64,000 nucleotides of DNA from Acutalibacteraceae bacterium (GTDB lineage Bacteria > Bacillota > Clostridia > Oscillospirales > Acutalibacteraceae): assembly GCA_045651285.1 (NCBI GenBank), contig JAZRSC010000014.1, positions 26,783 to 90,782 of the forward strand, given 5' to 3'. This document shows positions 15,619-61,252 of the stretch, piece after piece. Positions within the stretch are counted from its first letter, which is position 1; every line of letters starts with the position of its first letter. The notes under the pieces are model-generated. The model made no database searches. It saw nothing but the letters and a program-made list of their open reading frames with translations, and was not told where the DNA came from. Both the position numbers and the translations under genes were made by a program.

Positions 15619-15631
15619 TATCAGTTCCTCC

Positions 15632-17437: not shown

Positions 17438-17454
17438 AATTACCTCTCTCCTTC

Positions 17455-17838: not shown

Positions 17839-18386
17839 CCTTTCATATTTGTTAACTCATTAGTCTGTTCATTGATATATTGTTCAATCCAACTCATAAC
17901 TGATGGCTCTGAAAGAGGAACACCATCAAGAATTTTTTTAATCTCTACCGTTGAGAAGATGAATTCTTTATCATCTAACACGCGTTTATATAAAAATTCT
18001 TTATCACTATTCATTGAAACTATTGTCACAATAGTAGCTGCTATATCGCCCAATGGTGTAAAATCAACACTATCTGTTTTATAAAGAGCATTGATTTTTG
18101 TACCCACACCTTTCTGGGACTCAATAGTAAACTTACCACCCGTCTGCTCACAAGACATTTTAAAAAGTGGAATTCCCATACCAACCTTTCGGGTTGTTCT
18201 TGTTGTAAAGAATGGGTCTATAACACTTTTAACCTGTTCTTCTGTCATTCCACATCCGTTATCATAAATTCCAATTAAAAGAGTATTATCTTTCGTATTT
18301 TCGTTTACAACAATTTCGGTAAGTAACGCACCGGCAGATATTGAGTTTTGTGCAATATCAAGAATATTAAGCGAGAGTTCTCTCAT
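17835..18386 (-). CDS. stand-alone GHKL (histidine-kinase-like) ATPase domain protein embedded in the hydrogenase operon
   Basis: 183 aa. [13 protein letters not shown] (N-box), DNGCGM (G1) and GMGIPL...[8 protein letters not shown]..GVGT (G2). No HisKA or H-box. Its ATG overlaps the NuoE-like stop codon (TAATG). Confidence 0.6.
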   Translation of the reverse strand: [183 protein letters not shown]

Positions 18387-18883
18387 TAGTCCATATATTT
18401 TGCAAGGATACCAGGAATATCGTCTGCAGTAACCTTACCATAAACCTCACCGTTGATTGTGAAAACAGGTGCAAGACCGCAAGCACCAATGCAACGACAT
18501 GCTTCGAGTGAGAATTTACCATCTGCTGAACATTCACCCGCACCAATTCCAAGAACCTCACTAATTTTGTCTAAAATCTGTTGTGAACCTTTAACATAAC
18601 AAGCTGTACCAAGACAAACTGAAATGTCATATTCACCCTTAGGTGAAAGTGAGAACTGTGCATAGAATGTTGCAACACCGTAAACTTTTTCAAGAGGTAC
18701 ATCCATACCTTCAGCAATCATAACCTGAACTTCTCTTGGCAAGTAACCATAAATACCTTGTGCTTCTTGCATTACATGCATAAGCTGACTTTTGTCATCT
18801 TTACATTCAGCAATTACTGCATCAAGTTTTGCTTTTTGCTCAGGAGTACCCTTAAAAGGTATGCTACTGATTTTTTTAAGCAT
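18386..18883 (-). CDS. hydC: NuoE-like [2Fe-2S] subunit of the hydrogenase (HydC/HndA)
   Basis: The 165-aa form starts MLKKISSIPF, with a GGAGGA RBS 7 nt upstream. CLGTACYVKG...CRCIGACGLAPV is the NuoE cluster motif. The extra 55 codons of the track ORF (to 19048) have no RBS and are low-complexity. Confidence 0.8.
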   Translation of the reverse strand: MLKKISSIPFKGTPEQKAKLDAVIAECKDDKSQLMHVMQEAQGIYGYLPREVQVMIAEGMDVPLEKVYGVATFYAQFSLSPKGEYDISVCLGTACYVKGSQQILDKISEVLGIGAGECSADGKFSLEACRCIGACGLAPVFTINGEVYGKVTADDIPGILAKYMD

Positions 18884-19182
18884 TACTAATTCCTCCATTT
18901 CAAAAATAGAAACTATATTAAGCGGCATTTCACCACATACATACCTTATAATTATAGCAATTTTGACTTCAAAAGTCCATAGAAAAAAACGACTTTTTTC
19001 GGCAAATTGATATTTTTTTAACATTTTTCTGTTTTGCATAAAAATCAAAGAAAAAATTTTGTATCTTTAAACGATTTATATATCTTTGGTACTTAAATTT
19101 AGAAACTTTTTACAATAGAAATCCTCCTTGTTTTATGTTATTATATATATAACTATGATTTTACTATAATGGAGAGTTTTAT

Positions 19183-28024: not shown

Positions 28025-30703
28025 TTATTCCACACAAGAAACTCCTGTTGTATTATAATAACTTATACTCTTTCCGTTAACCGCTCTCACAGTATAAATA
28101 TACTCTGTACCTTCAATAACATTTGAGTCAATATAAGTTGTATTTTCTGTACCAGTTACAGTTTCAAGCAAAGTCCAGTTTGTATATAAAGTTTTTCTGT
28201 AAATTCTGTAACTGTCGGCATTTTCGTTCTGATTGAATTCAAGGATAATTCCACTTGTATCCCTTGTAGCAGCAACTAACTCAGGAATACCTAAATACAT
28301 TAAAGCTGTTGACCCTTTATAACTTGACAATACTTTACCACTTACTGTGCGTACTGTGTATTTATAAGTCACACCATCCTGAACACTTCCATCTGTCCAA
28401 GATGATTTAGATGAAGCAACAGTGCTCATACCCTTCCATGAAGACCATTTACCTGTGGCAACATCGAGCTGCGAACGATAAATTTTGTAACCTGTTGCAC
28501 CTGTTGCCTTTGTCCATTTAACTATAATGCCATTGGCCCCATTAGAAACAGAAACTGTAGGCTCTGCTAAATACATAAGAGAAGCCGAAGCTTTATGACT
28601 GCTACTGCAAAGACCGTTAACAGCCTTTACTGTGTAGCGATATATTGTACCGCTTTTTACATTTTTATCTACCCAAGAGAATTTTGTTGCAGCGGTAGTA
28701 CCACGCTTTTGCCAACCTGTCCACTTGCCTGTAGTTGCATTATATTGTGAACTATAAACAGTATATCCTGCTGCACCACTAACCTTTGACCAAGAAACAT
28801 TTATCCCTGTTGAACTGTTAGCACTTTTTACTGTTGGAGTTTTAAGAATTACACCAACCCAACCACTTGTATTATATGCAGAAAGAGTACTACCTTTATA
28901 TGCTCTTACTGTGTAAGTGTAAACTGAACCAACCTTTACATTTTTATCTGTGTAAGAAGTAGCGGTTGTTTTAGCTACCTGTGACCACTTTGTAGCACCT
29001 GGTGCTTTTCTGTAAACTCTGTAGCCACCAGCACCACTTACTGCACCCCATTGAATTTTGATTGCAGTTGACGAAGTTGTAACTTTGGTAACAGATGGAG
29101 TTGTAAGAGTATATTTTACAGTCCAACCTGTAGAATTATAACTCGAAAGATTTGAACCATTTTCTGCTCTTAATGTGTATTTATAAGATTTTCCAACAGT
29201 TACACCTTTGTCTGTATAAGAAGTGCCTGTTGCTTTACCTAACAATACCCAATTACTACCATTATGTCTATAAACACGATACTGTGCCGCACCCGCTACC
29301 GCTTTCCAGTTAAGTGTTATACCAGAACCGATAACAGAATTGGTTTTAGTAATCTGTGGAGCTGCTATATAGTTTATTCCGTATGACTTATACGCACTCC
29401 ATGTACCATTAGCATAAACCCTTACTGCATAGTAATTAGGTTTACCTGAAGTTGCACCAGTATCTGTAATACTTAAAACATCTGAATTTACTGTTTTGAG
29501 AATTGTCCAAGATGTTTCGTCTTTTAATTTTCTGTAAATTCTGTATTTTTCAGCACCTTCAACCGCAGTCCACTTAACACCTACACCTTTTTGTGCATTT
29601 GCTAAAGTAACTTTAGAAACCATTCCGACATAACGGATAGTTGCCACATTTGAATATGCGCTTAAACTGTCGTTTTTACATACCAGTACGAGATATTCGT
29701 ATTCAACACCGCTTGATATTGATTTATCTGTTACTGTAAGAACTGTTGAAGCTACTTCTTCAATTCTTCCCCATTTGGTTTCACCAGATTTCCTCTTATA
29801 TACCCTATATCCAGTTGCACCTTCAACTTTATCCCAGGCAATTTTTACACCTGAACTAGAATTTGTAACAGTAACATTTGTAGCATCAATGTAGGTAATT
29901 GATTTACCTGCATACCAACCATAACCACTTGCATTTTTTGCTCTCACTGCATAAGTGTATGTTGTATTGTTCTGAATATTTTCTGTGTCTGTATATGAAA
30001 TATCTTTCCAAGTAGCGATTGCTCTGTAGCTCTTATCTTCGCCACCCTTACGATAAAGAAGATATTCAGTAGCACCAGGTACTGCGTTCCATTTTACTGT
30101 TATTGCTTTTTTACCCGCAGTAAATGAAACAATTTCACCTGAATCAAGTGTTGCAAAGCCAGTACCATCCTGCCCCGCAAACTTTTTGATTGTTGAAGTA
30201 GATGAATAATCACCAGAAACAAATTCAACTGTTGTTTTAGGGTGTATTTTATCAATTACCTCAAAAGTAATAAATGCAAATTCTTTGCCTGTGTTACCTG
30301 TGTTAAAGCCACTTGCACTAATAAATGCAAAGGTATATGCAGAATCATCATACATAGAAACACCGTGAGTGTGCATACCTGCAAATACTTCTGTTTCATT
30401 ACCATCCGCATCAGTAGTCACTACAGGTCCTGCATCTACAATTCTTAAAATCTTTTTATCAAATTTAACAGTTACCATAGCCCCTGTAACTGTCACACCA
30501 CTTGAAATATTGATTTTAAATGTCACTTTACCATCTTTAAAGATTGGTTGTGATGCATTAGAAACAGTACCATCACTTATAACATATTTTGACGCATCAA
30601 GATATGAGTCTGGCACTGCAACAGCCGAAACTGTTACCATTAAGCTCATAATAACAGAAACAACCATTAAAATTGCAAGAGTTAATTTTAATCCTTTTTT
30701 CAT
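28025..30703 (-). CDS. secreted giant protein: signal peptide + cohesin-like domain + 8 FN3-like repeats (paralogue of 23927-27931)
   Basis: 892 aa. MKKGLKLTLAILMVVSVIMSLMVTVSA signal peptide. Cohesin-like residues about 30-165 (nt about 30209-30616: VTGAMVTVKFDKKILRIVDAGP...YTFAFISASG...FAFITFEVID...TVEFV). Then 8 units of the same repeat type. The last five repeats are collinear with the last five of the neighbour. Confidence 0.7.
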   Translation of the reverse strand: MKKGLKLTLAILMVVSVIMSLMVTVSAVAVPDSYLDASKYVISDGTVSNASQPIFKDGKVTFKINISSGVTVTGAMVTVKFDKKILRIVDAGPVVTTDADGNETEVFAGMHTHGVSMYDDSAYTFAFISASGFNTGNTGKEFAFITFEVIDKIHPKTTVEFVSGDYSSTSTIKKFAGQDGTGFATLDSGEIVSFTAGKKAITVKWNAVPGATEYLLYRKGGEDKSYRAIATWKDISYTDTENIQNNTTYTYAVRAKNASGYGWYAGKSITYIDATNVTVTNSSSGVKIAWDKVEGATGYRVYKRKSGETKWGRIEEVASTVLTVTDKSISSGVEYEYLVLVCKNDSLSAYSNVATIRYVGMVSKVTLANAQKGVGVKWTAVEGAEKYRIYRKLKDETSWTILKTVNSDVLSITDTGATSGKPNYYAVRVYANGTWSAYKSYGINYIAAPQITKTNSVIGSGITLNWKAVAGAAQYRVYRHNGSNWVLLGKATGTSYTDKGVTVGKSYKYTLRAENGSNLSSYNSTGWTVKYTLTTPSVTKVTTSSTAIKIQWGAVSGAGGYRVYRKAPGATKWSQVAKTTATSYTDKNVKVGSVYTYTVRAYKGSTLSAYNTSGWVGVILKTPTVKSANSSTGINVSWSKVSGAAGYTVYSSQYNATTGKWTGWQKRGTTAATKFSWVDKNVKSGTIYRYTVKAVNGLCSSSHKASASLMYLAEPTVSVSNGANGIIVKWTKATGATGYKIYRSQLDVATGKWSSWKGMSTVASSKSSWTDGSVQDGVTYKYTVRTVSGKVLSSYKGSTALMYLGIPELVAATRDTSGIILEFNQNENADSYRIYRKTLYTNWTLLETVTGTENTTYIDSNVIEGTEYIYTVRAVNGKSISYYNTTGVSCVE

Positions 30704-34032: not shown

Positions 34033-34200
34033 TTGTTAGTCGTTAGGAATTAGGTGTTAGGTGTTAGGTGTTAGATAATAGAAAACTACATTCTCTCATT
34101 TACTCAAAATGAAACAATGTAGTGTCTGTTATTCATATTCAAATATCATCACGTCGAAGCTTCAGAAATTGTGCATTCTGCACTCTGCATTTTGCATTCA
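34033..34200 (-). repeat. composite 3'-flank element, copy A (follows ileS; includes the ileS terminator hairpin)
   Basis: On the plus strand: (TAG-N4)x6 at 34037-34074; hairpin arms ACTACATT and AATGTAGT (34085-34123); degenerate conserved box TTATTCATATTCAAATATCATCACGTCGAAGCTTC (34129-34163); (TGCA-N3)x4 at 34172-34196. Confidence 0.8.
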
Positions 34201-38697: not shown

Positions 38698-39869
38698 TGG
38701 ATATAAGAAAAGAATCTTTAAAAAAACATTACGAGTGGAACGGAAAAATCGAAGTAGTTACCCGTTGCCCTATTGAAACAAGAGAAGATATGTCTTTAGC
38801 ATACACCCCCGGTGTTGCAGAAGCATGTCTTGAAATAGAGAAAGATGTCAACAAATCTTTTGAATTAACAAGAAGGAATAATCTTGTTGCAGTTATTACT
38901 GATGGCACTGCAGTTTTAGGGCTTGGTGATATAGGTCCAGAAGCGGGTATGCCTGTTATGGAAGGTAAATGTGCACTCTTTAAGGCATTTGCAGATGTTG
39001 ACGCGTTCCCACTTTGTGTAAAATCAAAAGATACAGACGAAATTGTTAAAACTATTTCTTTAATTTCAGGTAGCTTTGGTGGTATAAACTTAGAAGATAT
39101 TTCTGCACCGAGATGCTTTGAAATTGAGAAAAAGTTAAACGAATGTTGTGATATTCCAATATTCCACGACGACCAGCACGGTACTGCAGTTGTTGTTCTT
39201 GCGGCACTTCTCAATGCATTAAGGGTTGTAAAGAAAAATATTGAAACTGCAAAAATTGTTGTGAATGGTTTAGGTGCGGCAGGTACTGCAATTTCTAAAA
39301 TGCTTATTTCTGCAGGTGCTAAAAATATGGTGCTTGTTGACAGAAAAGGTATTATTGAAGAAAGTGATATTTCTTTAGGTGAAGAAAGACAGACATTAGC
39401 AAAAATCACAAATAAAGAAAATTTAAAAGGCGACCTTTCTGTTGCTATAAAAAATGCAGATGTATTTATTGGTGTTTCTGCACCTAATATATTAAGTGAA
39501 GAAATGGTAAAAACAATGAATAGTGATGCTATTGTTTTTGCCATGGCTAACCCGACACCGGAAATTATGCCTGATATTGCAAAAAATGCGGGAGCAAGAA
39601 TTGTCGGCACAGGTCGTTCAGATTTTCCAAATCAGATTAACAATGTTCTTGTTTTCCCTGGTATTTTCCGTGGTGCACTTGATGCGAATGCTACAAAAAT
39701 CACAGAAAATATGAAGCTCGCGGCGGCGAAGGCTCTCGCAGAGCATATTCCCGAAAACGAGTTGAACGAAGAAAATATAATTCCATCTGCCCTCGATAAA
39801 ACAATCGCTTACGAGGTTGCGAAGGCAGTTAAAGAACAAGCGGTAGTTGATAAAGCAGTTAGAATTTAG
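38697..39869 (+). CDS. NAD(P)-dependent malic enzyme (short form)
   Basis: 390 aa. LAYTPGVAEACLEI, VAVITDGTAVLGLGDIGPEAGMPVMEGK, FGGINLEDISAPRCFEIE and NGLGAAGTA. The ATG overlaps the prfB TAA (TAATG). Confidence 0.85.
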   Translation: MDIRKESLKKHYEWNGKIEVVTRCPIETREDMSLAYTPGVAEACLEIEKDVNKSFELTRRNNLVAVITDGTAVLGLGDIGPEAGMPVMEGKCALFKAFADVDAFPLCVKSKDTDEIVKTISLISGSFGGINLEDISAPRCFEIEKKLNECCDIPIFHDDQHGTAVVVLAALLNALRVVKKNIETAKIVVNGLGAAGTAISKMLISAGAKNMVLVDRKGIIEESDISLGEERQTLAKITNKENLKGDLSVAIKNADVFIGVSAPNILSEEMVKTMNSDAIVFAMANPTPEIMPDIAKNAGARIVGTGRSDFPNQINNVLVFPGIFRGALDANATKITENMKLAAAKALAEHIPENELNEENIIPSALDKTIAYEVAKAVKEQAVVDKAVRI

Positions 39870-39889
39870 AAAATTCTAACTGCTTTTTT
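39855..39889 (+). terminator. intrinsic terminator of the malic enzyme gene
   Basis: GCAGTTAGAATTT-AGA-AAATTCTAACTGC plus TTTTTT. The stem includes the stop codon. Confidence 0.7.
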
Positions 39890-39890
39890 A

Positions 39891-40012
39891 ATTGAGAATT
39901 GAGAGTTGAGAATTGAAAATTTTAGAAGGCTTCGCCTTGATTATAATTAAATATGAATAAAAAAGACTACATTCTTTCATTTGGAGTAAATGAGAGAATG
40001 TAGTTTCGTTTT
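39891..40012 (+). repeat. composite 3'-flank element, copy B
   Basis: (TTGA-N3)x4 at 39892-39916; box TTAGAAGGCTTCGCCTTGATTATAATTAAATATGAATAA at 39922-39960; hairpin GACTACATTCTTTCATTT-GGAGT-AAATGAGAGAATGTAGT at 39965-40003; then TTCGTTTT. Confidence 0.8.
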
Positions 40013-40038
40013 ATATTGAATTATAATCACTAAAATTA

Positions 40039-40452
40039 CTACTCAACAGGTACTAACATCAGCGTAGTTGCAAGATGAATAAAGAAAATAATCAATTTAG
40101 TTACCTTTTGAATTATCAATTCAACCATAACAACATCGTTATTAGTCTTAGCTAATTTATATAATTGTATTGTTCGCTTTAAATGTCTGCTTCGATGTAT
40201 TTCAAAAACACTCTGGTATTTATCAACAGCATCAAAATATTTCTGTGCCATGTGCCCTGTGTAAATATTATAAAATATAAAAAGAGCGGTATGGAAAAAG
40301 AATGTAAAAGCAACTGCGGAATCATCTAAAATAAAATTAAATAATAAACTCAACCCAATAAATAAAACTTGTAAAAAAAGAAAAACTCTGTTATAGTTTA
40401 TAATTTTATTTGCAGAAATAGTTTCTCTGTTAATTTTTTTACTTTTTGCCAT
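40039..40452 (-). CDS. hypothetical membrane protein
   Basis: 137 aa with 3-4 hydrophobic segments. No recognisable family. Confidence 0.4.
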   Translation of the reverse strand: MAKSKKINRETISANKIINYNRVFLFLQVLFIGLSLLFNFILDDSAVAFTFFFHTALFIFYNIYTGHMAQKYFDAVDKYQSVFEIHRSRHLKRTIQLYKLAKTNNDVVMVELIIQKVTKLIIFFIHLATTLMLVPVE

Positions 40453-40550
40453 AAATAATCCCTCCCTTTATAATTATTATACCCCAAGCAAAAAAGATTG
40501 TCAATATTTTAACACACTTATGAAAAATAATCAAAAATCCTATCATTTGT

Positions 40551-40746
40551 GCCAGTGGTCAGTTGTCAGTAAGTCAGTGGTCAGTTCATGTGTAAGTTAT
40601 AAGTAAAAATTCATCCTATCATCTTAGTTGGTTTTAATACCAACCAAAATGACAGGATGAACTATTTTTTTATTCAACAATAATTATACTCAAGGCGAAG
40701 CCTTCCAAAATTCTGCATTTTGCATTTTGCATTCTGCATTCTGCAT
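40551..40746 (-). repeat. composite 3'-flank element, copy C (follows 40779-41450)
   Basis: (CAGT)x5 at 40553-40585 (period 7/8); hairpin TTCATCCTATCAT...ATGACAGGATGAA at 40610-40661 with a nested TTGGTT/AACCAA stem; box ...TACTCAAGGCGAAGCCTTCC at 40665-40706; (TGCA-N3)x5 at 40714-40745. Confidence 0.8.
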
Positions 40747-40778
40747 TTTTTAAGGCTCAGCACTTTCGCGTAGTGAAC

Positions 40779-43944: not shown

Positions 43945-43948
43945 AAAG

Positions 43949-44190
43949 TTGCTAGTATGGCTAGTGTGGCTAGTTGGCTAGTTGTCAGTCATTAGGAAAT
44001 AGATAAAAGAAACTACACTCTATCATTTAAGATAAACCTTAAACGAAAGAGTGTAGTCTTTTTTATTCATATTTAATTACAATCAAACGCGTAGCGTTTC
44101 CTTAACTCAGCACTCAGCCTTCAGCACTCAGCACTTAAATTTCCAACGCAGTTCCGACAATTCCGAATTACGCATTACGCATTCCGAATT
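43949..44190 (-). repeat. composite 3'-flank element, copy D (follows the SNF transporter; overlaps its stop codon)
   Basis: Irregular (TAG/CAG) array 43953-44002; hairpin ACTACACTCT...AGAGTGTAGT 44012-44057; box with AAACGC-GTA-GCGTTT 44058-44102; (TCAG-N3)x4 at 44107-44131; (CCGAATT/ACGCATT)x4 at 44163-44190. Confidence 0.8.
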
Positions 44191-45556
44191 AAATCTTTAC
44201 AATCCCCAGCGCATCAAGAACTGATGAAATGAGAATTAAAACAATGCAGATTGGTGCAAAATATTTTATAACAATCAAGAAAAGCTTCTTTCTTTTGAAT
44301 TTTCCTGTAAGCTCGATTTCTTCTATAAACATATCTGGCTTTACAATGTAACCGACAAAAACGCAAGTTAAGAATGCAACTATCGGCATTAAAACACTGT
44401 TACTTATAAAGTCAAAGAAATCAAGGAATGCCATACCAATAATTTTAATATCAGCAAGTGTTCCGTAACCGAGTGCAGAAAGAGCGCCTAAAATTATTGA
44501 GCCAATTAACACTATGAGTAATGTTTTATTTCTTGAAAGACCTGTTTTATCTTTTACAATAGAAACAACTGTTTCCATAAGGGAAATTGAAGATGTGAGT
44601 GCGGCAAAAAGCACTAAAACAAAGAATAAAATACCGACTATCGAGCCACCTGCCATACTTTCAAATACCTTCGGAAGTGTGACAAACATAAGTCCCGGAC
44701 CTTTGCCTAATGCACTTTCGTCACCGCCTGAGAAAGCGAAAACCGCAGGGATAATCATAAGACCTGCCAAGAAAGCAATACCGGTGTCAAAAAGCTCAAT
44801 CTGTTTTACAGAACTTTCAAGACCTACATCTTTTTTCATATATGAGCCGTAAGTAATCATAATACCCATAGCAAGTGACATTGAGTAGAAAAGTTGACCC
44901 ATAGCCGCAAGGACCGTTGTTGCAGAGAATTTTGAAAAATCTGGCATAAGGTAAAACTTGACACCCTCTAAAGCACCTGGCATAAACATTGCGTAACCTG
45001 CAATAAATATTGTGAGTATAACAAGTACAGGCATCATAATTTTACTTACTTTTTCAATACCCTTTTCAACACCTAAAAGTACAACCAGTGCAGTAAGACC
45101 AATATAAATTGCAAACCATAAAAGTGGTTCTGCAGGTGCAGAAATAAACGAATCGAAAAATCCGTCAGTTGCGGCAGATGAAATATTCCCTGTTATAAAT
45201 ACAGTACAATATTTAATAATCCAACCGCCAATAACTGAATAATACGGGAGAATTATAATAGGGACTATTGAGCAAAGCCATCCAACAAACTTGAATTTTT
45301 TATTGAGTTTACCAAATGCTTCAATAGCACTGACTCCTGTTTTTCTGCCTATTGCAATTTCGGCACACATTAAAGCGAAACCGAATGTAATTGCTAAAAT
45401 AATATAAACAAGTAAAAATATACCACCACCATATTTTGCCGCGAGATATGGGAAACGCCAGATATTGCCAAGACCAACCGCAGAACCCGCAGTTGCAAGA
45501 ACAAAGCCTAATTTACCTGAAAAGGTACTTCTTTTTTCTGCCATAAAATTTACCAT
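44189..45556 (-). CDS. sodium-dependent neurotransmitter:sodium symporter (SNF) family transporter
   Basis: 455 aa. GFVLATAGSAVGLGNIWRFPYLAAKYGGG is the SNF signature. An alternative start at 45544 (MAEKRS) is possible. Confidence 0.85.
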   Translation of the reverse strand: MVNFMAEKRSTFSGKLGFVLATAGSAVGLGNIWRFPYLAAKYGGGIFLLVYIILAITFGFALMCAEIAIGRKTGVSAIEAFGKLNKKFKFVGWLCSIVPIIILPYYSVIGGWIIKYCTVFITGNISSAATDGFFDSFISAPAEPLLWFAIYIGLTALVVLLGVEKGIEKVSKIMMPVLVILTIFIAGYAMFMPGALEGVKFYLMPDFSKFSATTVLAAMGQLFYSMSLAMGIMITYGSYMKKDVGLESSVKQIELFDTGIAFLAGLMIIPAVFAFSGGDESALGKGPGLMFVTLPKVFESMAGGSIVGILFFVLVLFAALTSSISLMETVVSIVKDKTGLSRNKTLLIVLIGSIILGALSALGYGTLADIKIIGMAFLDFFDFISNSVLMPIVAFLTCVFVGYIVKPDMFIEEIELTGKFKRKKLFLIVIKYFAPICIVLILISSVLDALGIVKI

Positions 45557-45616: not shown

Positions 45617-45850
45617 GAGAGGGTGAAAAAATGACTTATGCGCAAAACCTTAGTACATTTTTCCTAATTTTTGATGCAGAAGACTTTTTCTTCACCCCGA
45701 AGCTGTATTAAAATACTGCGAGCGGGTAAAAAAATAACTTATGCGCAAAACCCTAATTTTTTCTGATTTTTGATGCAGAAGGCTTTTTCGTCACCCCGAA
45801 GCTATATAAAGATACTGCGAGAGGGTGAAAAAATGACTTATGCGCAAAAA
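45617..45850. repeat. tandem repeat of about 100 nt, about 2.3 copies, each carrying a long imperfect hairpin (family 2)
   Basis: The anchor ATGCGCAAAA recurs at 45638, 45741 and 45840. Arms CTTTTTCTTCACCCCGA and CGAGCGGGTAAAAAAA (45685-45735), and CTTTTTCGTCACCCCGA and CGAGAGGGTGAAAAAA (45783-45834). Confidence 0.85.
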
Positions 45851-51055: not shown

Positions 51056-51943
51056 ATGCTTGAACTCGATAACGCTTTAAATCTTATTGTAAAAGGTTTA
51101 GAAAGCACTACAAAAGAATTAGGCTTCAAGGTTGTTTACCCTGATGGTGTAACCCCACCTGAAGCACCAGTTTTTAAAGAAAACGACATTTCTTACATCA
51201 GTTACACAGGTGAAAAAGGAAGAATAAGAATTATATTCAAGAAAAAGCAACTTGCTTTACATTGTGCAACTGCTGATGAAGAAGATATTGCTGATGATGA
51301 CATGAAAAGGATTTCGCTCTCTCTTCTTGAGTTAGACGAATATGAAGAAAAAGATTTAACGTACATCTTCGATGAATTTACAGACTCACTTCTTAACACA
51401 TTCAAATCAAAACACGATTTGCGTGGTAATGTTAAAATGCCAACACCAGTTTCAAAATCAAAAGCAAAAAATGGTGTTCAGTATTTTGACGCAGTTACAT
51501 TAGGTAGTAAAATAGGTAATATTTACCCTGAATTAAAAGAAGAATATAAAAATAATGTTACTGAATATGGCGAGTTTCTTCCCGAAGAATTCTTTGTTAC
51601 ACATGGTAACAAATTTATAGAAGAAACAATTCGTCAGAACGACAAACAAAAAATGCGTAAGCTCTTTAATACACTTAACGAGATTTATGATGATGGCACA
51701 AATGATACTCAAAGTCTTATAGGTGTTACGATTTTAGGTACAATTCTCAGCGAGAATCTTGACCTTTTACCTATTGCTGAACCTTACTTTGGTGATGTTA
51801 TGAAAGAGCCTGTTACTGAAATAATTAAATATCTTTCTTCACCAAGAAGCAAGGGTGCTAAAATGAGACTCAAAAACCCACCAATTTACAAACCAAAAAC
51901 AAAAAAGAAAAAAGGTTTCTTACAAGAAATGATGGGAATGTAA
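51056..51943 (+). CDS. hypothetical cytoplasmic protein
   Basis: 295 aa from the ATG at 51056 (GAGAGG RBS). The track starts at the TTG at 51041. No recognisable family. Confidence 0.45.
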   Translation: MLELDNALNLIVKGLESTTKELGFKVVYPDGVTPPEAPVFKENDISYISYTGEKGRIRIIFKKKQLALHCATADEEDIADDDMKRISLSLLELDEYEEKDLTYIFDEFTDSLLNTFKSKHDLRGNVKMPTPVSKSKAKNGVQYFDAVTLGSKIGNIYPELKEEYKNNVTEYGEFLPEEFFVTHGNKFIEETIRQNDKQKMRKLFNTLNEIYDDGTNDTQSLIGVTILGTILSENLDLLPIAEPYFGDVMKEPVTEIIKYLSSPRSKGAKMRLKNPPIYKPKTKKKKGFLQEMMGM

Positions 51944-51980: not shown

Positions 51981-52063
51981 TTTGTCTTACGACAAGTTAT
52001 AAGTTATAATTGCTTCGCAAGTTAAAATAGAAATAGATACACTTTTTTGTCGAATTAATTTAA

Positions 52064-52129
52064 ATGCAGAAGGCTTTTTCTTCACCCCGACCACATACAA
52101 ATGTATGCCGAGCGGGTGAAAAAATGACT
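52064..52129. repeat. solitary copy of the family-2 hairpin repeat
   Basis: ATGCAGAAGGCTTTTTCTTCACCCCGA-CCACATACAAATGTATGC-CGAGCGGGTGAAAAAATGACT. Same arms as 45685-45735; the loop differs but is itself palindromic (CATACA/TGTATG). Confidence 0.8.
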
Positions 52130-52188
52130 AACCCTCGAAACTCCTATAGAGTTTCGAGGGTATTCTGCGTTAAATTAGTCGATAAAAA

Positions 52189-53485: not shown

Positions 53486-55789
53486 TCATTCCAACAATTT
53501 TTTTATACTTTCGAGTGTATTTAAAGCATTTTCATCGCCTTTATAGTTTCTTAAATCACCTTTTATAAAAGAAATTATATTTCCATCATTTGAATTTTCA
53601 GCTGCAACAAGACCGAAAACACCTAATGAACATGATTTTCTCAAATCAACCGGCTTCATTTTAACTGCCTTGCCATTTATTGTTCGTCTTGTGAATTCAC
53701 AAGCATTTTCACAACCCTTACAAATAAATTCACTTTCAAGATATGGCAATACAATATTTTTAACTGTAGGAGTGCAAGAAGTAAGCGCACCAGTCGGGCA
53801 AGTATTTACACAAGCACCACAAGAAACGCAATTGCTTTCACTGAGTGGTAAATCAAATGCATTCATTGGAATTGTGCCGAAGCCTCTGCCAAAAAGACCA
53901 AGATTTTCAGTGTGTGAAACCTCATTACAAACTCTGACACAAAGACCACAAAGAATACATTTATTATTATCCCTTACAATAAATGGATGACTCTTATCTT
54001 TTTTGTACTGTCTTGTTTCACCAGACATATTCATTTCCCAACTGTCATATTCTCTCATTAACGGAAGAAGCTGACAGTCGTAAACTGACGCACATCCACA
54101 TTCGAGACAACGAGACGCTTCTTTTTGTGCCTCTTCTTTCGCTAAAACAGATGCCACTTCATTAAAATTATTTCTTCTTACATCTGCATTTTCAAGAGTC
54201 ACTTTAACTCTATCAATTTTTTCTGTACCACATAATACTTCTTTGTCAAAGCTTTTATTTTCTGCATATTGTGGTAATTCAAGGGTTAAATCTATTCCGT
54301 TAAGATAACAGTCAATACTTCTTGCGGCATTTTTACCACCAGCAATTGCCCTTACTGCAATATCAGTACCTTTATTTATAACATCACCTGCGGCAAAAAC
54401 TCCCTCAAGAGATGTTTTAAATGAACTTTCGTCTGCTGAAACTGTACCTTTTTTAGTAAGTTCAAGTTCTTTCACATCACCTGATACAACTTGTTGACCT
54501 ATTGCAGAAATAATAGTATCACAATAAAGAATTTCTGTTTCACCCTCTATTGCAACAGGACTTCTTCTGCCACTCGCATCGGGTTCACCAAGTTCCATCT
54601 TCTGAAGATTTATACCTTTGACTTTACCATTTTCTGTTACAACATTGAGCGGTGCAACAAGGAATTTAAAATTAACGCCCTCATCTTTTGCATCTTTAAT
54701 TTCATCTTTTTCAGCAGGCATTTCACTTTCAGTTCTTCTATAAATGAGAGTAACATTTTCTGCACCAAGACGAACTGCAGTTCTTACTGCATCTATTGCA
54801 GTATTACCACCGCCGACAACTGCAACATTTTTGCCAAGGTCAACATTCTCACCAATAGCAGTTTTGTAGAGCATATCTATGCCACCGATTACACCTGTTG
54901 CATTATCGCCATCAACACGAAGTGAACTACTTTTCCATGCACCTGTTCCAACAAACACTGCGTCATATTCTGTTTTTAAACTTTCAATAGTAAAATCTCT
55001 GCCCAGTTTTTTATTATAATTAAAATGAGCACCCATCTTTTCAATGTTTTCTATCTCTTTATCTAAAACATCTTTAGGAAGTCTGTAAGCAGGAATACCG
55101 AAACGAAGCATACCACCAGCCTGTGATTGTGCTTCAAAAACATCTACACTATAACCTCTTAAAAGCAAGAAATATGCACAAGAAAGCCCCGCAGGACCAC
55201 CACCTACTACTGCAACTTTCTTACCATTTTTAGTTTCACATTCTGGAATATAGTCAGTATATTCATCAGAAGCGAAACGTTTGAGTGAGCATATAGAAAC
55301 TGCTCCCTCAAGATGATTTCTTCTACAAGCCTCTTCACAAGGATGAGGACACACTCTGCCTATTGAACGAGGAAGCGGATTGTCTTTTTTTATTATTTTA
55401 ATTGCTTCTTCTGTTTCACCATTTGCAATTAACCCCACATAGCCTTGAATATCCTGATGAGTGGGGCACGCTTTAAAGCACGGTGCTTTACAGTCCCCCG
55501 TATGGTCTGAAAGAATTAAAGAAAGTGAAACTTTTCTGCTTTTTTCAAGTGTCTCTGTACTTGTAGTAACCTTCATACCCTCTGTAACAGTAGTAGAACA
55601 AGCACGGAGAGGTTTGTTTACACCCTCAACCATCACAAGACAAAGACCGCAACCACCATAGCTTTCTATTTCTTTGTTATGACAAAGGTGAGGTAAGTTT
55701 ATTCCGTTATCAAGAATATTATCTAAAAGAGTTTTTTCTGTATCTGCTTTACACTCTTTACCGTTAATAAAAATATTAACAATACTCAT
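53486..55789 (-). CDS. fusion protein: 2Fe-2S ferredoxin + GltD/NfnB-like NADPH:FAD oxidoreductase + NuoG/HydA-N-terminal-like Fe-S domains (StnC-like)
   Basis: 767 aa. N-terminal CHNKEIESYGGCGLC...LRAC. GltD-type CP.HQDI...RVCPHPCEEAC. Two dinucleotide folds (VAVVGGGPAGL, VAVVGGGNTAID). C-terminal CILCGLCVRVC and CVSCGACVNTCPTGAL. No H-cluster domain. Confidence 0.65.
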   Translation of the reverse strand: MSIVNIFINGKECKADTEKTLLDNILDNGINLPHLCHNKEIESYGGCGLCLVMVEGVNKPLRACSTTVTEGMKVTTSTETLEKSRKVSLSLILSDHTGDCKAPCFKACPTHQDIQGYVGLIANGETEEAIKIIKKDNPLPRSIGRVCPHPCEEACRRNHLEGAVSICSLKRFASDEYTDYIPECETKNGKKVAVVGGGPAGLSCAYFLLLRGYSVDVFEAQSQAGGMLRFGIPAYRLPKDVLDKEIENIEKMGAHFNYNKKLGRDFTIESLKTEYDAVFVGTGAWKSSSLRVDGDNATGVIGGIDMLYKTAIGENVDLGKNVAVVGGGNTAIDAVRTAVRLGAENVTLIYRRTESEMPAEKDEIKDAKDEGVNFKFLVAPLNVVTENGKVKGINLQKMELGEPDASGRRSPVAIEGETEILYCDTIISAIGQQVVSGDVKELELTKKGTVSADESSFKTSLEGVFAAGDVINKGTDIAVRAIAGGKNAARSIDCYLNGIDLTLELPQYAENKSFDKEVLCGTEKIDRVKVTLENADVRRNNFNEVASVLAKEEAQKEASRCLECGCASVYDCQLLPLMREYDSWEMNMSGETRQYKKDKSHPFIVRDNNKCILCGLCVRVCNEVSHTENLGLFGRGFGTIPMNAFDLPLSESNCVSCGACVNTCPTGALTSCTPTVKNIVLPYLESEFICKGCENACEFTRRTINGKAVKMKPVDLRKSCSLGVFGLVAAENSNDGNIISFIKGDLRNYKGDENALNTLESIKKLLE

Positions 55790-57540
55790 TATTTTACCCC
55801 ACTTTCTATTTTGATTGCACCGAATTTACAACTTGCTATACATTGTCCGCAACGGATACACAATTCATTATTTATAATAAATGATTTTTTGATTTCACCT
55901 CTTATTGCCTTGTTAGGACATTTTTTGCTACAAAGTGAGCAACCTTTGCAAAGTGATTCATCGATATTATAATTGATAAGTGCAGTGCATTTTTTTGCAG
56001 GGCATTTTTTCTCATTTATGTGTGCCAAATATTCATCTTTAAAATATTTAATAGTAGTAAGTACAGGGTTTGGTGCAGAATTACCAAGACCACAAAGTGC
56101 ACCTGTTTTAATGCTCTCAGCCAATTCTAAAAGAACATCAACATCACTTTCAGAACCTTCGCCATCAACTATTCTTTCTAATATTTCAAGCATACGGGTA
56201 GTACCAATTCTGCAAGGTACACATTTACCACAGCTTTCTTTACTTGTAAAATCCATAAAGAATTTTGCCATATCTACCATACAGGTATTTTCGTCCATAA
56301 CGACCATACCACCAGAGCCCATAATAGCTCCTGTTTTTGCTATGCTTTCATAGTCAATTGATGTAGAAAGCATATCTTTTGGAATACAACCACCACTAGG
56401 TCCACCCATTTGAACGGCTTTAACCTCTGCATCGTCTATAATTCCACCACAGATATCAAACACGATTTTTTCAATAGTAATACCCATAGGCACTTCAACA
56501 AGTCCACCGCGTTTTACTCTGCCTGCTAATGCGAAAACTTTAGTACCCTTACTGTTTTCTGTACCCATTTCCGAGAATGCACTACCACCATTTTCAATAA
56601 TCCATGAAACATTTGCAAATGTTTCAACATTATTTATGTTAGTTGGTTGCTTTCTGAAACCTTTTTGTGCAGGGAAAGGTGGTTTTGTAACAGGCATACC
56701 TCTGTTACCGCCCAATGATGCTAAAAGTGCAGTTTCTTCACCACAAACGAATGCACCTGCGCCCATCATAATTGAAAAATCGAAATTGAAGCCACTATTT
56801 AAAATATTTTTACCTAAAAGGTTCTTTTCTCTTAATTCATCAATTGCTAATTGCAATCTTTTAACTGCTAACGGATATTCTGCACGAACATATATAATAC
56901 CCTGTGACGCACCGATAGCAACACCTGCAATCATCATACCTTCAAGAACCCTGTGTGGGTCACTCTCTAAAACTGCTCTGTCCATAAATGCACCCGGGTC
57001 ACCTTCGTCTGCATTACAAACAACATATTTCTGGTCTGACTGTGAATTTTTTGCAGATTGCCATTTAAAGTGTGTAGGGAAACCAGCTCCCCCACGACCA
57101 CGAAGACCTGAAATTTTTATTTCTTCAATTATTTTGTCAGAACCCATTTCTAATGCTTTTTTGAATGCATCATATCCACCCATTGAAATGTATGAGTCAA
57201 TACTTTCAGGGTTCACCTTACCACAACCAGAAAGAACAATTCTTTTCTGACTATTAAGAAAATTCAATTCTTCATCAGTAAATTTATTATTCTCTGGTAA
57301 CTCACCTTTCAAAACACTCTCTGCAAGTGCTTTTGCACTTTCTTTATTAAGTCTTCCATAAAGTATGCTATTACCATTATCATCAATAACTTCAACAATA
57401 GGTTCTGCGAAACAAAGACCATTACAACCGACTTTTTCAACAGAATATTCTGTGTTTTTTAATATTTCGTTAAGCCCCTCAAGAACAAAATCTGCACCAG
57501 AAGCAATACCACAAGAGCCATACCCTAATAAAAATCTCAT
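55789..57540 (-). CDS. NuoF-like flavoprotein (StnB/HydB-like)
   Basis: 583 aa. GRGGAGFPTHFKW, ESCGKCVPCR and two C-terminal ferredoxin motifs. Paralogue of 15632-17437. Confidence 0.75.
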   Translation of the reverse strand: MRFLLGYGSCGIASGADFVLEGLNEILKNTEYSVEKVGCNGLCFAEPIVEVIDDNGNSILYGRLNKESAKALAESVLKGELPENNKFTDEELNFLNSQKRIVLSGCGKVNPESIDSYISMGGYDAFKKALEMGSDKIIEEIKISGLRGRGGAGFPTHFKWQSAKNSQSDQKYVVCNADEGDPGAFMDRAVLESDPHRVLEGMMIAGVAIGASQGIIYVRAEYPLAVKRLQLAIDELREKNLLGKNILNSGFNFDFSIMMGAGAFVCGEETALLASLGGNRGMPVTKPPFPAQKGFRKQPTNINNVETFANVSWIIENGGSAFSEMGTENSKGTKVFALAGRVKRGGLVEVPMGITIEKIVFDICGGIIDDAEVKAVQMGGPSGGCIPKDMLSTSIDYESIAKTGAIMGSGGMVVMDENTCMVDMAKFFMDFTSKESCGKCVPCRIGTTRMLEILERIVDGEGSESDVDVLLELAESIKTGALCGLGNSAPNPVLTTIKYFKDEYLAHINEKKCPAKKCTALINYNIDESLCKGCSLCSKKCPNKAIRGEIKKSFIINNELCIRCGQCIASCKFGAIKIESGVK

Positions 57541-58034
57541 TTTACTGCCTCCTGTTCTCTTATAGACTCTAATATTTCTACTACCTTTTCACTTGTCAAT
57601 TTACCATAGGCAGTATCATTTATCATCATAGCAGGTGAAATACTGCAACAACCAAGACACGCAACCTCTTCCCATGAGAAAAGTCCGTCCTCTGTAATAT
57701 CGCCTGCTTCAATACCCAAGGTTCTTCTTAAAGTATCAGCAACTCTTTCGCCACCATTAACATGACATGCTGTACCCATACAAACCATAATTCTGTATTT
57801 ACCTATAGGTTTAAGGCGAAAGCCTGCGTAAAATGAGGCAACACCTAAAATTTTGCTACTCGCAATACCAGTTAATTCGGTAATGCATTTTACACTTTCT
57901 TCTGATATATATCCAACAAGTGCCTGAACCTCTTGCAGAATTGCAATAAGACTTTCAGACGGATTGTTATATTTTTCAATAATTGATTTGATTTGTGATT
58001 TTAATTCACAAGACATTTTCATTACTCCAATCAA
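57537..58034 (-). CDS. NuoE-like [2Fe-2S] protein (StnA/HydC-like)
   Basis: About 160 aa. CMGTACHVNG...CLGCCSISPAM. 4-nt overlap with the NuoF-like gene. The true start may be an internal Met (MKMSCEL). Confidence 0.75.
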   Translation of the reverse strand: MIGVMKMSCELKSQIKSIIEKYNNPSESLIAILQEVQALVGYISEESVKCITELTGIASSKILGVASFYAGFRLKPIGKYRIMVCMGTACHVNGGERVADTLRRTLGIEAGDITEDGLFSWEEVACLGCCSISPAMMINDTAYGKLTSEKVVEILESIREQEAVK

Positions 58035-58810: not shown

Positions 58811-59088
58811 GTGCTGAATACTGAACAAAGTAGTGCTGAATGCTGGGTGCTGAGTGCTGAGTTTAGGAAGGCTTCGCCTTGATTGTAATTTAATATGAAT
58901 AACAAAAACTACATTCTCTCATTTTTAGTTAATAAAATTTAAATGATAGAATGTAGTTGTTTTTATAATATTACAATGCCAACGCAGTTCCAAAATTGTG
59001 CATTATGCATTGTGACTTGTGCATTTTACAATGCTGACCGCAGGTCCCGAAATTCAGCGCTCAGCACTCAGCACTCAGCATTCAGCAC
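58811..59088 (+). repeat. composite 3'-flank element, copy E (between HAD hydrolase and the convergent small feo gene; arrays on both sides are mutually inverted)
   Basis: (CTG-N4) array 58814-58859; box TTTAGGAAGGCTTCGCCTTGATTGTAATTTAATATGAATAA 58862-58902; hairpin AACTACATTCTCTCATTT...AAATGATAGAATGTAGTT 58908-58957; (TGCA-N3)x4 at 58999-59023; (TCAG-N3)x5 at 59054-59085. Confidence 0.85.
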
Positions 59089-59228
59089 TTTTTACAATTC
59101 TTCGAATTGCAAGTTTTCGCATTCGGGCAACCAATACACTTTTCGCCTTTTTTCTTTGCTTTTATCACATAACCGATAGCCGCACCTAAAATCAATACAA
59201 GAACTGCTATAATGATAAAGTTTTCCAT
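59082..59228 (-). CDS. FeoB-associated Cys-rich small membrane protein
   Basis: Below the ORF-track cutoff. The minus strand gives MENFIIIAVLVLILGAAIGYVIKAKKKGEKCIGCPNAKTCNSKNCKKC (48 aa): one TM helix plus a Cys-rich tail, 17 nt downstream of feoB. That architecture and position match the FeoB-associated family. Confidence 0.7.
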   Translation of the reverse strand: MENFIIIAVLVLILGAAIGYVIKAKKKGEKCIGCPNAKTCNSKNCKKC

Positions 59229-59245
59229 ATTTTTACTCCCATAAA

Positions 59246-61252
59246 TTATTTTGTTGTTTTTTCTTTAGCTTTTAAAGTATATTGAACTTCAATTTTCTTA
59301 TTTGCTCTTACAATAAGCATCACAATAATTGCAATAAATGCCACTACCGCAATTAAGCCACCTAAGAAACCTGCGCCAACAGAACCAGTTGTTATATATG
59401 TACCAATCTGGTAAACGAGAAAACCAATTGTAAAGCCTGTGCTTAATTGAAGTACTATACCACCCCAAAACCATTTTGCACTTTTCATTTCTGAATTCAT
59501 AGCACCGAGTGCTGCAAAGCACGGTGGTGTATAAAGGTTAAACATAAGAAATGCTAAAGCGGCAGGAGCTGTAAGCCCCATTATTGTAGCAACCTCTGAT
59601 GCACCGCCCTCTAAAACAAGCTCATCAACATTTATAAAGTTTGTGATGCTAAAACACACTGCAAGAGTACCAACAACATTTTCCTTTGCAATAAAGCCTG
59701 TAATAGCCGCCGCCGCTAATTGCCAAGAAAGAATACCAACAACAGGAACAAGAAGATATGCAAACGGTGAAGCGATAGATGCTAAAATTGAAGCATCTGC
59801 AGTTTCTGCAATCTGGAATTTCCAGGTAAATGTCTGCATAATCTGAACAGCAGTATTACAAATAAGAATAACTGTTGCCGCTTTGACAACATAAGCCCAG
59901 CCACGACTGCACATTGATTGGAATGCTCTAAAAAAACTTGGGACTTTATATTCAGGAAGTTCAATAATAAAAAATGATTTTCTCACTTTGTACCCCGAAA
60001 CTTTATTTACAAGCAATGCACCAAAAAATATAAGCACAATACCTGCAAAATACATAACAGGGCCTACCCATTTTGCATCACCGAAAAATACGCCAGAGAA
60101 AAGTGCTATAACTGGAAGTTTTGCACCACAAGGCATAAATGGTGCGAGCATAGCAGTTGCTCTGCGTTCTCGTTCATTACGGATTGTTCTGCAAGCCATA
60201 ACACCTGGTACTGCACAACCGGTTGTTATTACAAACGGAATAATAGATTTACCTGAAAGACCAACTTTTTTGAAAATCGGGTCTAAAACAACCGAAGCAC
60301 GAGCCATATAACCACAGTCTTCAAGAAGTGCTATAAGGAAATACATTACCATAACAAGTGGTAAGAATCCAATAACAGCGATTACACCACCGATAACACC
60401 ATCAACTAAAAGAGCTGAGAGCAATGGATTTGCATTTTCGAAAAGTCCTCCAATCCATTCCTGACCAACTTCTAACCAACCCACTAATAAATCTGCAATC
60501 CATACACCAGGACCATACTGTGAAATCCAGAGTACTAAGAACATTACAACTGCAAAAATAGGAAGACCTACCCATTTGTTTGTTATTACTGAATCGATTT
60601 TATCCTGGAAATTTCTGTCTTTTGTAAAGAATTTTCGTGTTTCAACATCTTTAACAATAGATTTTACAAACTGAAAACGCTTTTTATCGACATCTTTAAC
60701 CTGACTTTTGCTTGTTAAATCAATATTACCTTGAGTGAAAGGTGCAAACTGACCTTTACCAATACTGTCAATTGCAAGATTCAGAACTTTCTCAATCCCA
60801 TCAGAAGATGTTGAAACAGTTTCAACAACAGGACAGTTTATTTTTTTGCTTAAAAGCTCTGTATTTATTTGATTTTGTTTTTTCTTATTCAAATCACTTT
60901 TGTTAAGTGCTATAACAACAGGAATATTAAGTTCTGAAAGTTGAGTAGTAAAGAAAAGACTTCGGCTTAAATTTGTAGCGTCAACAATATTTATAATTGC
61001 ATCAGGTTTTTCATTTACTATATAATCTCGGGTTACAGTTTCTTCACTCGTAAAAGGCGACATTGAGTAGGCACCGGGAAGGTCAACTATAATAAGTTCA
61101 TCCTTTCCGGTGTACAAATTCCTTTTTACACTGTGTTCTTTTTTCTCAACTGTAACACCTGCCCAGTTACCAACTTTTTCGTTAGCACCTGTTAATGCAT
61201 TGAACATTGTTGTTTTACCGCTGTTCGGATTACCCGCCAAAGCAATTCGCAT
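59246..61252 (-). CDS. feoB: ferrous iron transporter FeoB
   Basis: 668 aa. N-terminal G-domain (IALAGNPNSGKTTMFNALTG, DLPG, NKSD) followed by a polytopic membrane domain. Confidence 0.95.
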   Translation of the reverse strand: MRIALAGNPNSGKTTMFNALTGANEKVGNWAGVTVEKKEHSVKRNLYTGKDELIIVDLPGAYSMSPFTSEETVTRDYIVNEKPDAIINIVDATNLSRSLFFTTQLSELNIPVVIALNKSDLNKKKQNQINTELLSKKINCPVVETVSTSSDGIEKVLNLAIDSIGKGQFAPFTQGNIDLTSKSQVKDVDKKRFQFVKSIVKDVETRKFFTKDRNFQDKIDSVITNKWVGLPIFAVVMFLVLWISQYGPGVWIADLLVGWLEVGQEWIGGLFENANPLLSALLVDGVIGGVIAVIGFLPLVMVMYFLIALLEDCGYMARASVVLDPIFKKVGLSGKSIIPFVITTGCAVPGVMACRTIRNERERRATAMLAPFMPCGAKLPVIALFSGVFFGDAKWVGPVMYFAGIVLIFFGALLVNKVSGYKVRKSFFIIELPEYKVPSFFRAFQSMCSRGWAYVVKAATVILICNTAVQIMQTFTWKFQIAETADASILASIASPFAYLLVPVVGILSWQLAAAAITGFIAKENVVGTLAVCFSITNFINVDELVLEGGASEVATIMGLTAPAALAFLMFNLYTPPCFAALGAMNSEMKSAKWFWGGIVLQLSTGFTIGFLVYQIGTYITTGSVGAGFLGGLIAVVAFIAIIVMLIVRANKKIEVQYTLKAKEKTTK

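Follow-up and report, generated by a model that had tools for sequence, protein, structure and literature searches.

Interspersed repeats that form hairpins, among them REP, BIME, REPIN, BOX and Correia sequences, are well studied in the Proteobacteria and in a few pathogens, and descriptions of such repeats are scarce for those uncultured Clostridia that predominate in gut and rumen communities. The BOX elements of pneumococci are modular, non-coding intergenic repeats with a subunit (boxB) of about 45 nucleotides (nt) iterated in tandem, and BOX, Correia and RUP elements have inverted ends, are predicted to be strongly structured and affect where transcripts end. Miniature inverted-repeat transposable elements (MITEs) have fixed terminal inverted repeats that match an insertion sequence, plus target-site duplications. 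Here we describe a repeat from a 64-kb stretch of DNA (G+C 33–37%; hereafter the window) belonging to an Acutalibacteraceae bacterium, the genes of which include housekeeping, sporulation, hydrogenase and cohesin genes. Five intergenic loci in the window, copies A to E, are copies of one undescribed non-coding, hairpin-forming repeat family of uncultured gut and rumen Clostridia. By description the family resembles BOX elements and MITEs as a modular, non-coding repeat with an iterated subunit and strong predicted structure, and is set apart from them in that its iterated unit is 7 nt long, the arrays that form its 'termini' vary between copies, and no duplication was found.

The system most like the Clostridia element in its working is the REP/BIME/REPIN group of the Proteobacteria (REPINs: Bertels and Rainey, 2011, PMC3116915). 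Both are short, non-coding and extragenic, are found mainly at the 3' ends of genes and between convergent gene pairs, combine inverted hairpin-forming units and linkers into mosaics, and vary in presence and absence at orthologous sites. In a REPIN, an inverted doublet and its spacer fold as one long hairpin, which is the unit that is copied; the Clostridia element likewise consists of extragenic inverted doublets that fold as one hairpin. Unlike a REPIN, it has no outermost 5' GT[AG]G head. Its outermost parts are arrays, and CTAC and GTAG lie within the base of the central stem (ACTACA...TGTAGT), in the opposite order. Whereas REP sequences are GC-rich, the element is AT-rich, with heptanucleotide-array termini, a terminator centre with A- and T-runs, and a host among the Clostridia. 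No gene for a RAYT (Y1/HUH transposase) was found in 47 of the 48 window open reading frames (ORFs) of at least 90 amino acids (aa), all but 23927-27931 having been scanned, or in the annotated related loci.

The arrays themselves belong to the phenomenon of heptanucleotide long simple repeats, which includes the STRR and TAACTGA repeats (MacGregor, 2015, PMC4679880). They share with these a tandem 7-nt unit in 3–6 copies, an intergenic position, several related units mixed per genome, insertions and deletions in 7-nt steps, and units that, on rotation, read AGT.... or AAT...... For STRR or TAACTGA repeats, a grammar that links arrays to a mini-hairpin, box or terminator has not been described. 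The Beggiatoaceae arrays lie mostly directly upstream of start codons and were proposed to be translational regulators (PMC4679880). In contrast to the STRRs, the Clostridia arrays are conserved parts of a copied composite and always stand at 3' ends. With bidirectional Rho-independent terminators the element shares an A-run, stem-loop and T-run, a position past the stop codon and equal stability of the two strands. However, sequence conservation between loci or species is not a property of ordinary terminators, and here 15 of the 20 predicted pairs stay the same in 19 or more of 20 copies and the hairpin is accompanied by flanking modules.

Family membership and anatomy

A nucleotide profile hidden Markov model, trained on 20 cores and run over the window, matched exactly five places (71.8–103.6 bits, E 7e-21 to 1e-30) and none beyond them. 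These scores are far above background, so the similarity goes beyond generic AT-rich terminator composition. The five copies had been listed in an earlier note made from the sequence; they lie where it placed them and read as it described, and its view of a dispersed repeat family with fixed architecture at gene 3' ends is borne out. The whole window gave no match in Rfam at gathering thresholds, and only generic miRNA-hairpin matches far under threshold in E-value mode, which rules out a known RNA family for the element. A literature search by element sequence strings and keywords returned no description of the family. The suggestion that it is not a catalogued family, with REP, BOX and Correia-type repeats as the nearest concepts, agrees with these scans.

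The earlier note had read the element as a single ordered string. It is instead a two-sided, quasi-palindromic mosaic in which a central hairpin of 17–25 bp is flanked on one or both sides by inward-pointing modules, each ordered as 7-nt array, linker (TTTCGGAA, TT(T)CGGAA-type, TTGTGGG or similar), mini-hairpin and ATTATAAT-rich box. The central hairpin is 17 bp long (25 bp in copy C), has ACTACATTCTnTCATTT arms, and is preceded by an A-run and followed by a T-run. At least two types of inner module are interchangeable: the L-type, GGAAGGCTTCGCCTTGATTATAATTAAATATGAATAA, which the note had taken as the conserved box, and the R-type, of which GGGTCTGCGACGCAATTATAATATTATAAAA and GGAACTGCGTTGGCATTATAAT are examples. 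The 37-nt consensus offered for that box holds for copies B and E, with at most 3 mismatches (0.00 expected by chance), but not for A, C and D; D has another stem, A a degenerate mini-hairpin and C a diverged box. The copies in the window are as follows.

Copy A, 34034-34199, minus strand (profile match 34070-34179, minus): TGTTAGG array 34034-34074, central hairpin 34085-34123, box 34129-34151, degenerate mini-hairpin 34152-34165, ATTCTGC/ATTGTGC array 34168-34199; ends 3 nt from the ileS stop codon.
Copy B, 39890-40014, plus strand (profile match 39909-40017, plus): AATTGAG array 39890-39921, mini-hairpin AAGGC-TTC-GCCTT 39926-39938, box 39939-39960, central hairpin 39964-40006, then a T-run.
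Copy C, 40537-40752, minus strand (profile match 40591-40721, minus): hairpin-arm remnant ATCCTATCATTT 40537-40548, CAGTGGT-type array 40551-40585, 25-bp hairpin 40612-40659 that differs from the hairpin of the other copies, diverged box, mini-hairpin AAGGC-GAA-GCCTT (plus-strand reading, 40692-40704), ATTCTGC array 40710-40747.
Copy D, 43947-44190, minus strand (profile match 43995-44115, minus): GGCTAGT-type array 43947-43984, central hairpin 44012-44057, box 44063-44085, mini-hairpin AAACGC-GTA-GCGTTT (plus-strand reading, 44085-44099; AAACGC-TAC-GCGTTT on the element strand), ACTCAGC array 44105-44135; second module with mini-hairpin AAC-GCA-GTT 44145-44153 and the 32-nt array AATTCCGAATTACGCATTACGCATTCCGAATT 44159-44190.
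Copy E, profile match 58852-58978, plus strand, in five parts:
58811-58862, plus: left array, AGTGCTG units 58832-58862 and degenerate units 58811-58831; the purine-rich strand faces the hairpin.
58863-58902, plus: L-type inner module, linker TTAGG, mini-hairpin AAGGC-TTC-GCCTT (58868-58880), box GATTGTAATTTAATATGAATAA.
58899-58966, unstranded: central hairpin, arms ACTACATTCTCTCATTT (58908-58924) and AAATGATAGAATGTAGT (58941-58957), A-run before and T-run after.
58967-59025, minus: first R-type module, inverted; AT box, mini-hairpin AAC-GCA-GTT (58981-58989), CCAAAATT, GTGCATT array (58998-59025).
59026-59089, minus: second right-hand module, inverted; mini-hairpin GACC-GCA-GGTC (59036-59046), CCGAAATT, TCAGCAC array (59054-59089), the reverse complement of the left array.

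Each element starts close past a stop codon, as had been noted; the measured distance is 0–32 nt, and the array of copy D overlaps the SNF stop codon by 2 nt. Pfam confirmed the gene names ileS, malic enzyme, SNF transporter and HAD hydrolase, and gave no match for the 223-aa ORF that had been called a membrane protein. Copy B indeed backs an existing, separate terminator (16-bp stem at 39852-39886), so termination alone does not explain the element. On the far side of copy E, a small gene of about 49 aa (about 59093-59246), annotated as FeoB-associated in the related locus L141, ends about 3 nt from the right array, so that all 297 nt of the intergenic space consist of element sequence.

The 64 kb contain ten 7-nt arrays, all within the five elements, as found by a period-7 script with which Tandem Repeats Finder agrees; the one extra period-7 row (51888-51914) is an A-rich low-complexity run. 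Family-wide, 72 arrays have a median length of 32 nt, and the unit follows the pattern A-[AG]-T-[GT]-N-N-[GA] in 67 of them. The main unit types are AATTAAA, AGTGCTG, AATGCAG, AATTGAG and AATTCGG, of which AATTAAA is the commonest (13/72) and lacks C on either strand. The arrays have a mirrored polarity: the strand facing the hairpin is richer in G than in C in 38 of 42 arrays (p = 6e-8), with base counts of A 642, G 298, T 394 and C 112, such that C makes up only 8%. The outer arrays of copy E are mutually reverse complementary, as had been remarked, at 97% over 30 nt.

Next to the arrays, the mini-hairpins keep their pairing as their sequence varies. Stems are 3–6 bp long and include AAGGC/GCCTT, AAACGC/GCGTTT, AAGCC/GGCTT, AAGTCC/GGACTT, GTC/GAC and GACC/GGTC. 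The loops beside arrays are TTC (13), TGC (8) and TAC (7), always closed by a C-G pair (C-TNC-G). Among 17 variants, picked by eye and therefore subject to some ascertainment bias, 88% of cells are paired against 65% in shuffles, and 21 cells carry double changes against 6.8, a value attained in 0 of 500 shuffles. The invariant C-TNC-G loop and the covarying stems together imply selection on structure. On the opposite strand the loop reads C-GNA-G, literally GCGAAGC or GCGTAGC in many copies. This is the loop of the extraordinarily stable DNA mini-hairpin GCGNAGC, for example d(GCGAAGC) (PMC13037366). The motif has the standing of a physico-chemical curiosity met with at some origins and promoters, and is not known to be a module of any dispersed bacterial repeat.

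The earlier note had counted a five-copy family and had allowed that no copies might exist elsewhere; the same architecture occurs in relatives, and the family is clade-wide. A pattern scan of GTDB species genomes yielded 33 loci, 17 of them with full architecture. All 17 come from gut or rumen metagenome-assembled genomes (MAGs) labelled Acutalibacteraceae, Oscillospiraceae or Clostridia, and another 19 full copies (score >70) lie within them. A box-only scan of metagenomes recovered true family members at 10 of 98 loci, the remainder being mostly chance matches in AT-rich DNA. In total, at least 30 further copies lie beyond the window, in gut and rumen Oscillospirales MAGs and in metagenomes.

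A phage or plasmid origin was rejected: phage records contained no match to the element, IMG/VR viral contigs gave one isolated candidate hit, and plasmids of unrelated bacteria held bare CTCAGCA arrays only. CTCAGCA/AGTGCTG arrays of 5–7 units occur on plasmids of Legionella antarctica (L145) and an Erwinia sp. (L146) and in Kovacikia minuta (L147), from phyla unrelated to the host, in each case without mini-hairpin or terminator architecture; the Erwinia array adjoins an IS110 transposase gene and the Legionella array a tyrosine recombinase gene. Nostoc punctiforme pNPUN01 (L148) has AGTCAGG and AGTAATG arrays directly past stop codons (961-2005 and 44800-44883), and those at 44800-44883 are inverted with the purine-rich strand inward, which is the polarity rule of the Clostridia family. 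Two contigs of one Acutalibacteraceae MAG (L002 1409-2149 and L012 3731-4467) share a block of about 750 nt at 92.6% identity with no obvious gene. Within it lie a family element, several GGGGCTACGCC modules and hairpins rich in G and C, among them CCTCCTTTGAAAAGGAGG and ACCATCGCTTGCGATGGT; the block may be a larger composite or a structured RNA.

Copying, turnover and gene ends

A copying event was found in the MAG CALFTN01, where loci L013 and L017, on different contigs, have 222 nt in common at 97.3% identity and otherwise unrelated flanks. The identity spans outer array to outer array. The L017 element terminates in perfect inverted 32-nt arrays, AATTCGGAATGCGTAATGCGTAATTCGGAATT, and the 32-mer of both its ends is identical to positions 44159-44190 of window copy D. 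The composite was here copied whole to unlinked loci, in the manner of a MITE, with the copy boundary at the inverted arrays. Inverted termini of 30–32 nt are present in copy E and L017, but the array unit differs between copies. As single-stranded DNA, copy E (−66 kcal/mol, z −10.9) and L017 (−64.4 kcal/mol, z −13.0) are each predicted to form a single long clamp in which the outer arrays pair.

Homologues of the malic enzyme and of the HAD protein gave access to orthologous sites in relatives, the genes of which have about 89–93% nucleotide identity.

HAD 3' end (copy E): the window has the family hairpin, L139 and L140 have a plain 44-nt terminator, and L141 and L142 have composites in which a C-type hairpin is combined with other modules.
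ileS 3' end (copy A): family element in the window; plain unrelated terminators in L035 and L039; array only in L034.
Site B: L-type inner module in the window; same hairpin with an R-type module in L034, L035 and L039.

The R-type replacement at site B reads GGGTCTGCGACGC+ATTATAATATTATAAAA in the three relatives, and in loci L066 and L100 the L-type box is joined to other hairpins. Modules and hairpins are exchanged among copies, and elements are gained, lost or substituted for plain terminators at orthologous sites.

The closest relative, L034 (malic enzyme 98% identical in amino acids), lacks ORF137 (window 40039-40452). Comparison of L034 7190-7460 with window 39964-40660 revealed a 566-bp deletion with the junction TCATTT|GTGCCAG, where the 5' arm of hairpin B is joined to the arm remnant at window 40537-40548. 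Because the junction falls inside repeated hairpin arms, the repeats mediate rearrangements. The malic enzyme of L034 (6001-7224) has 407 aa compared with 390 aa in the window; its frame does not close at the usual stop but continues into the array and mini-hairpin of the element, and a protein C-terminus is thus altered by element turnover.

RNA folding of the central hairpins gave −18 to −36 kcal/mol (z −4.5 to −10); for copy E the values were −18.3 and −16.9 kcal/mol (z −5.3 and −4.9). Hairpin stability shows no strand bias (10 vs 12 among 25 copies), which fits a bidirectional terminator or a structure at the DNA level. A strand-specific RNA hairpin with G-U asymmetry was considered and dropped; the sense strand is more stable in B, C, D and marginally E, not in A, and the effect vanishes over 25 copies. 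By sequence, the hairpin has the parts of an intrinsic terminator, namely a stable stem-loop and T-run after a stop codon with an A-run before the stem, and we infer that it is a bidirectional intrinsic (Rho-independent) terminator.

In a survey of 24 full copies, every copy is extragenic and abuts a stop codon. Both neighbours are known for 18 copies, of which 10 lie between convergent genes, 8 between tandem genes and none between divergent genes. The claim that each element is oriented with the gene it follows does not hold as a rule, since it is automatically true of the 10 convergent copies and the tandem contexts split into 5 sense and 3 antisense, which is not significant.

Explanations weighed

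Taken together, we lean, with moderate confidence, towards a mosaic repeat, REPIN/BIME/MITE-like and non-autonomous, that is copied in folded form as one unit, the modules of which recombine, and that would be tolerated through its bidirectional terminator centre. By analogy with REPIN/RAYT and IS200/IS605, movement would proceed via a single-stranded, fully folded hairpin, and the catalyst would be a trans-acting enzyme with its gene elsewhere in the genome. After insertion the central hairpin, judging from its anatomy and position, would serve as a Rho-independent terminator in both directions. Such a role would explain why copies are tolerated at the 3' ends of genes alone, and chiefly between convergent ones, and the element is probably useful through this centre.

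Several results weigh against a mobile repeat of this kind. Transposase, integrase, reverse transcriptase and HUH domains were not found in the scanned window ORFs, and mobilising enzymes are also absent from the annotated loci of relatives. Neither a target-site duplication nor a clean empty-site junction could be defined; at the E site the whole intergenic region is replaced. Left and right arrays match in just 5 of 13 elements against 2.3 expected (p about 0.05). The window copies are mosaics with a mutual similarity of only 70–90%, so most of them are not recent. Four assemblies of one strain with identical flanking genes carry identical elements, which indicates that change is not rapid on strain timescales and rules out fast microsatellite behaviour. 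Finally, the termination role is a prediction from sequence.

REP-like doublets lie beside elements in relatives (L003 ~2050-2130, L004 ~3560-3600, L006 ~190-230 and L026 ~7290-7335). They read GTAGGGGAAGAGC-TCT-GCTCTCCC... and ...GGGCGACC-GCA-GGTCTGCCCCTAC, and their core, GACC-GCA-GGTC, is the R-type mini-hairpin at window 59036-59046. REP-like hairpins of GTAGGGG type thus adjoin elements in relatives; GTAGGGG is absent from the window. These doublets are a lead toward a RAYT-type system.

The best-surviving alternative, which we regard as possible but rather doubtful, is accretion without any enzyme. Terminators would seed arrays by slippage, quasi-palindrome template switching would mirror them and ectopic gene conversion would homogenise the modules, with no dedicated mobility machinery and no selection beyond termination. 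Among the long simple repeats of prokaryotes, heptanucleotides are the commonest, and their origin has been ascribed to slippage of the polymerase (Mrazek et al., 2007, cited from the summary in PMC4679880). Accretion would also account for the failure to find an enzyme in the 47 window ORFs or a target-site duplication at the E site; the mosaics and short-patch module swaps at orthologous sites resemble gene conversion, and the 566-bp deletion in L034 is a case of hairpin repeats recombining. However, gene conversion needs flanking homology, and the 222-nt composite of L013 and L017 was copied with sharp ends between unrelated flanks. The same 32-mer and the same mini-hairpin and array modules recur in different species, and the arrays are not free-running microsatellites. 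The restricted repertoire of array units (67/72 fitting one pattern) and the invariant C-TNC-G loop with its covarying stems also argue against accretion.

Somewhat less probable again is a selected RNA-level device at the 3' end, in which the purine-rich, C-poor array, the mini-hairpin and the terminator would function within the 3' untranslated region, and departing read-through transcripts would carry G-poor pyrimidine arrays with more C than G that could load Rho or otherwise block antisense read-through. Rho in Bacillus mainly suppresses read-through antisense transcription. A device of this type fits the mirrored polarity, by which approaching transcripts are purine-rich and departing ones G-poor, as well as the enrichment between convergent genes and the addition of copy B behind an existing terminator. 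It sits poorly with the commonest unit, AATTAAA, which is C-free on both strands and cannot be a Rho-loading site; the idea of Rho-loading arrays is undermined by it. Moreover, orthologous genes in close relatives manage with a plain 44-nt terminator, free module swapping at one site argues against gene-specific regulation, and the loop motif points to the DNA-stable GNA strand more than to a known RNA tetraloop.

There is also a slim chance that array, TTCGG linker and C-GNA-G module are the footprint of an uncharacterised single-stranded DNA machinery that both moves the elements and builds or maintains the 7-nt arrays. In that case a single enzymatic origin, and not polymerase slippage, would lie behind the arrays of Cyanobacteria (STRR), Beggiatoaceae, some Bacteroidetes and these Clostridia.

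A small gene, either a ATTATAAT promoter for a short hairpin RNA or a leaderless micro-ORF from the ATG of AATATGAATAA (MNKKDYILSF...), is very improbable: a TATAAT stands 6 nt upstream of a nearly invariant ATG and the frame stays open for 10–17 codons in the window copies, but there is no acceptable −35 element at 16–18 nt, a sigma-70 scan picks the box in no copy, no Shine-Dalgarno sequence precedes the frame, the peptide differs in length and C-terminal end according to the hairpin loop, its codon 8 undergoes non-synonymous change (L, H, V, F), the ATG is missing from the R-type module that takes the same position at orthologous sites, and Rfam gives no match.

Neighbouring features and wider meaning

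The window contains a second family of intergenic repeats. Its 99-nt unit stands 2.3 times in tandem at 45617-45849 between the HSP90 and SNF genes, with a third copy (68% identity) at 52047-52140 before the cohesin-domain gene, and neither place matched Rfam. Its motif is ...GATGCAGAAGaCTTTTTCgTCACCCCGAAGCTATAT...GAGAGGGTGAAAAAATGAC, and one like it stands behind the HAD orthologue in L144. Positions 9854-13714, 23927-27931 and 28025-30703 are occupied by three very large, repetitive ORFs of surface type. Among them are a 1286-aa LRR_5/BspA protein with 42-nt and 243-nt internal repeats, an 892-aa ORF that matches fn3 and GH85_C and has repeats of about 264 nt, and the 1334-aa ORF 23927-27931, outside the domain scan, with repeats of about 264 nt. 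Two paralogous clusters of hydrogenase, NuoF-like and 2Fe-2S thioredoxin-like genes (13867-19048 and 53486-58034) have stretches of 73–76% nucleotide identity.

What the repeat family adds for the uncultured Clostridia is a clear grammar and a copied unit that ends in inverted heptanucleotide arrays. The origin of 7-nt arrays has been debated since the cyanobacterial STRRs; here they are tied to a copy-and-paste element with strict polarity and a structured DNA motif, which makes the question testable. The elements also have practical effects: they replace terminators, alter the C-termini of proteins and mediate deletions. Many copies lie at contig ends, and metagenome assemblies are thus probably broken by the elements.

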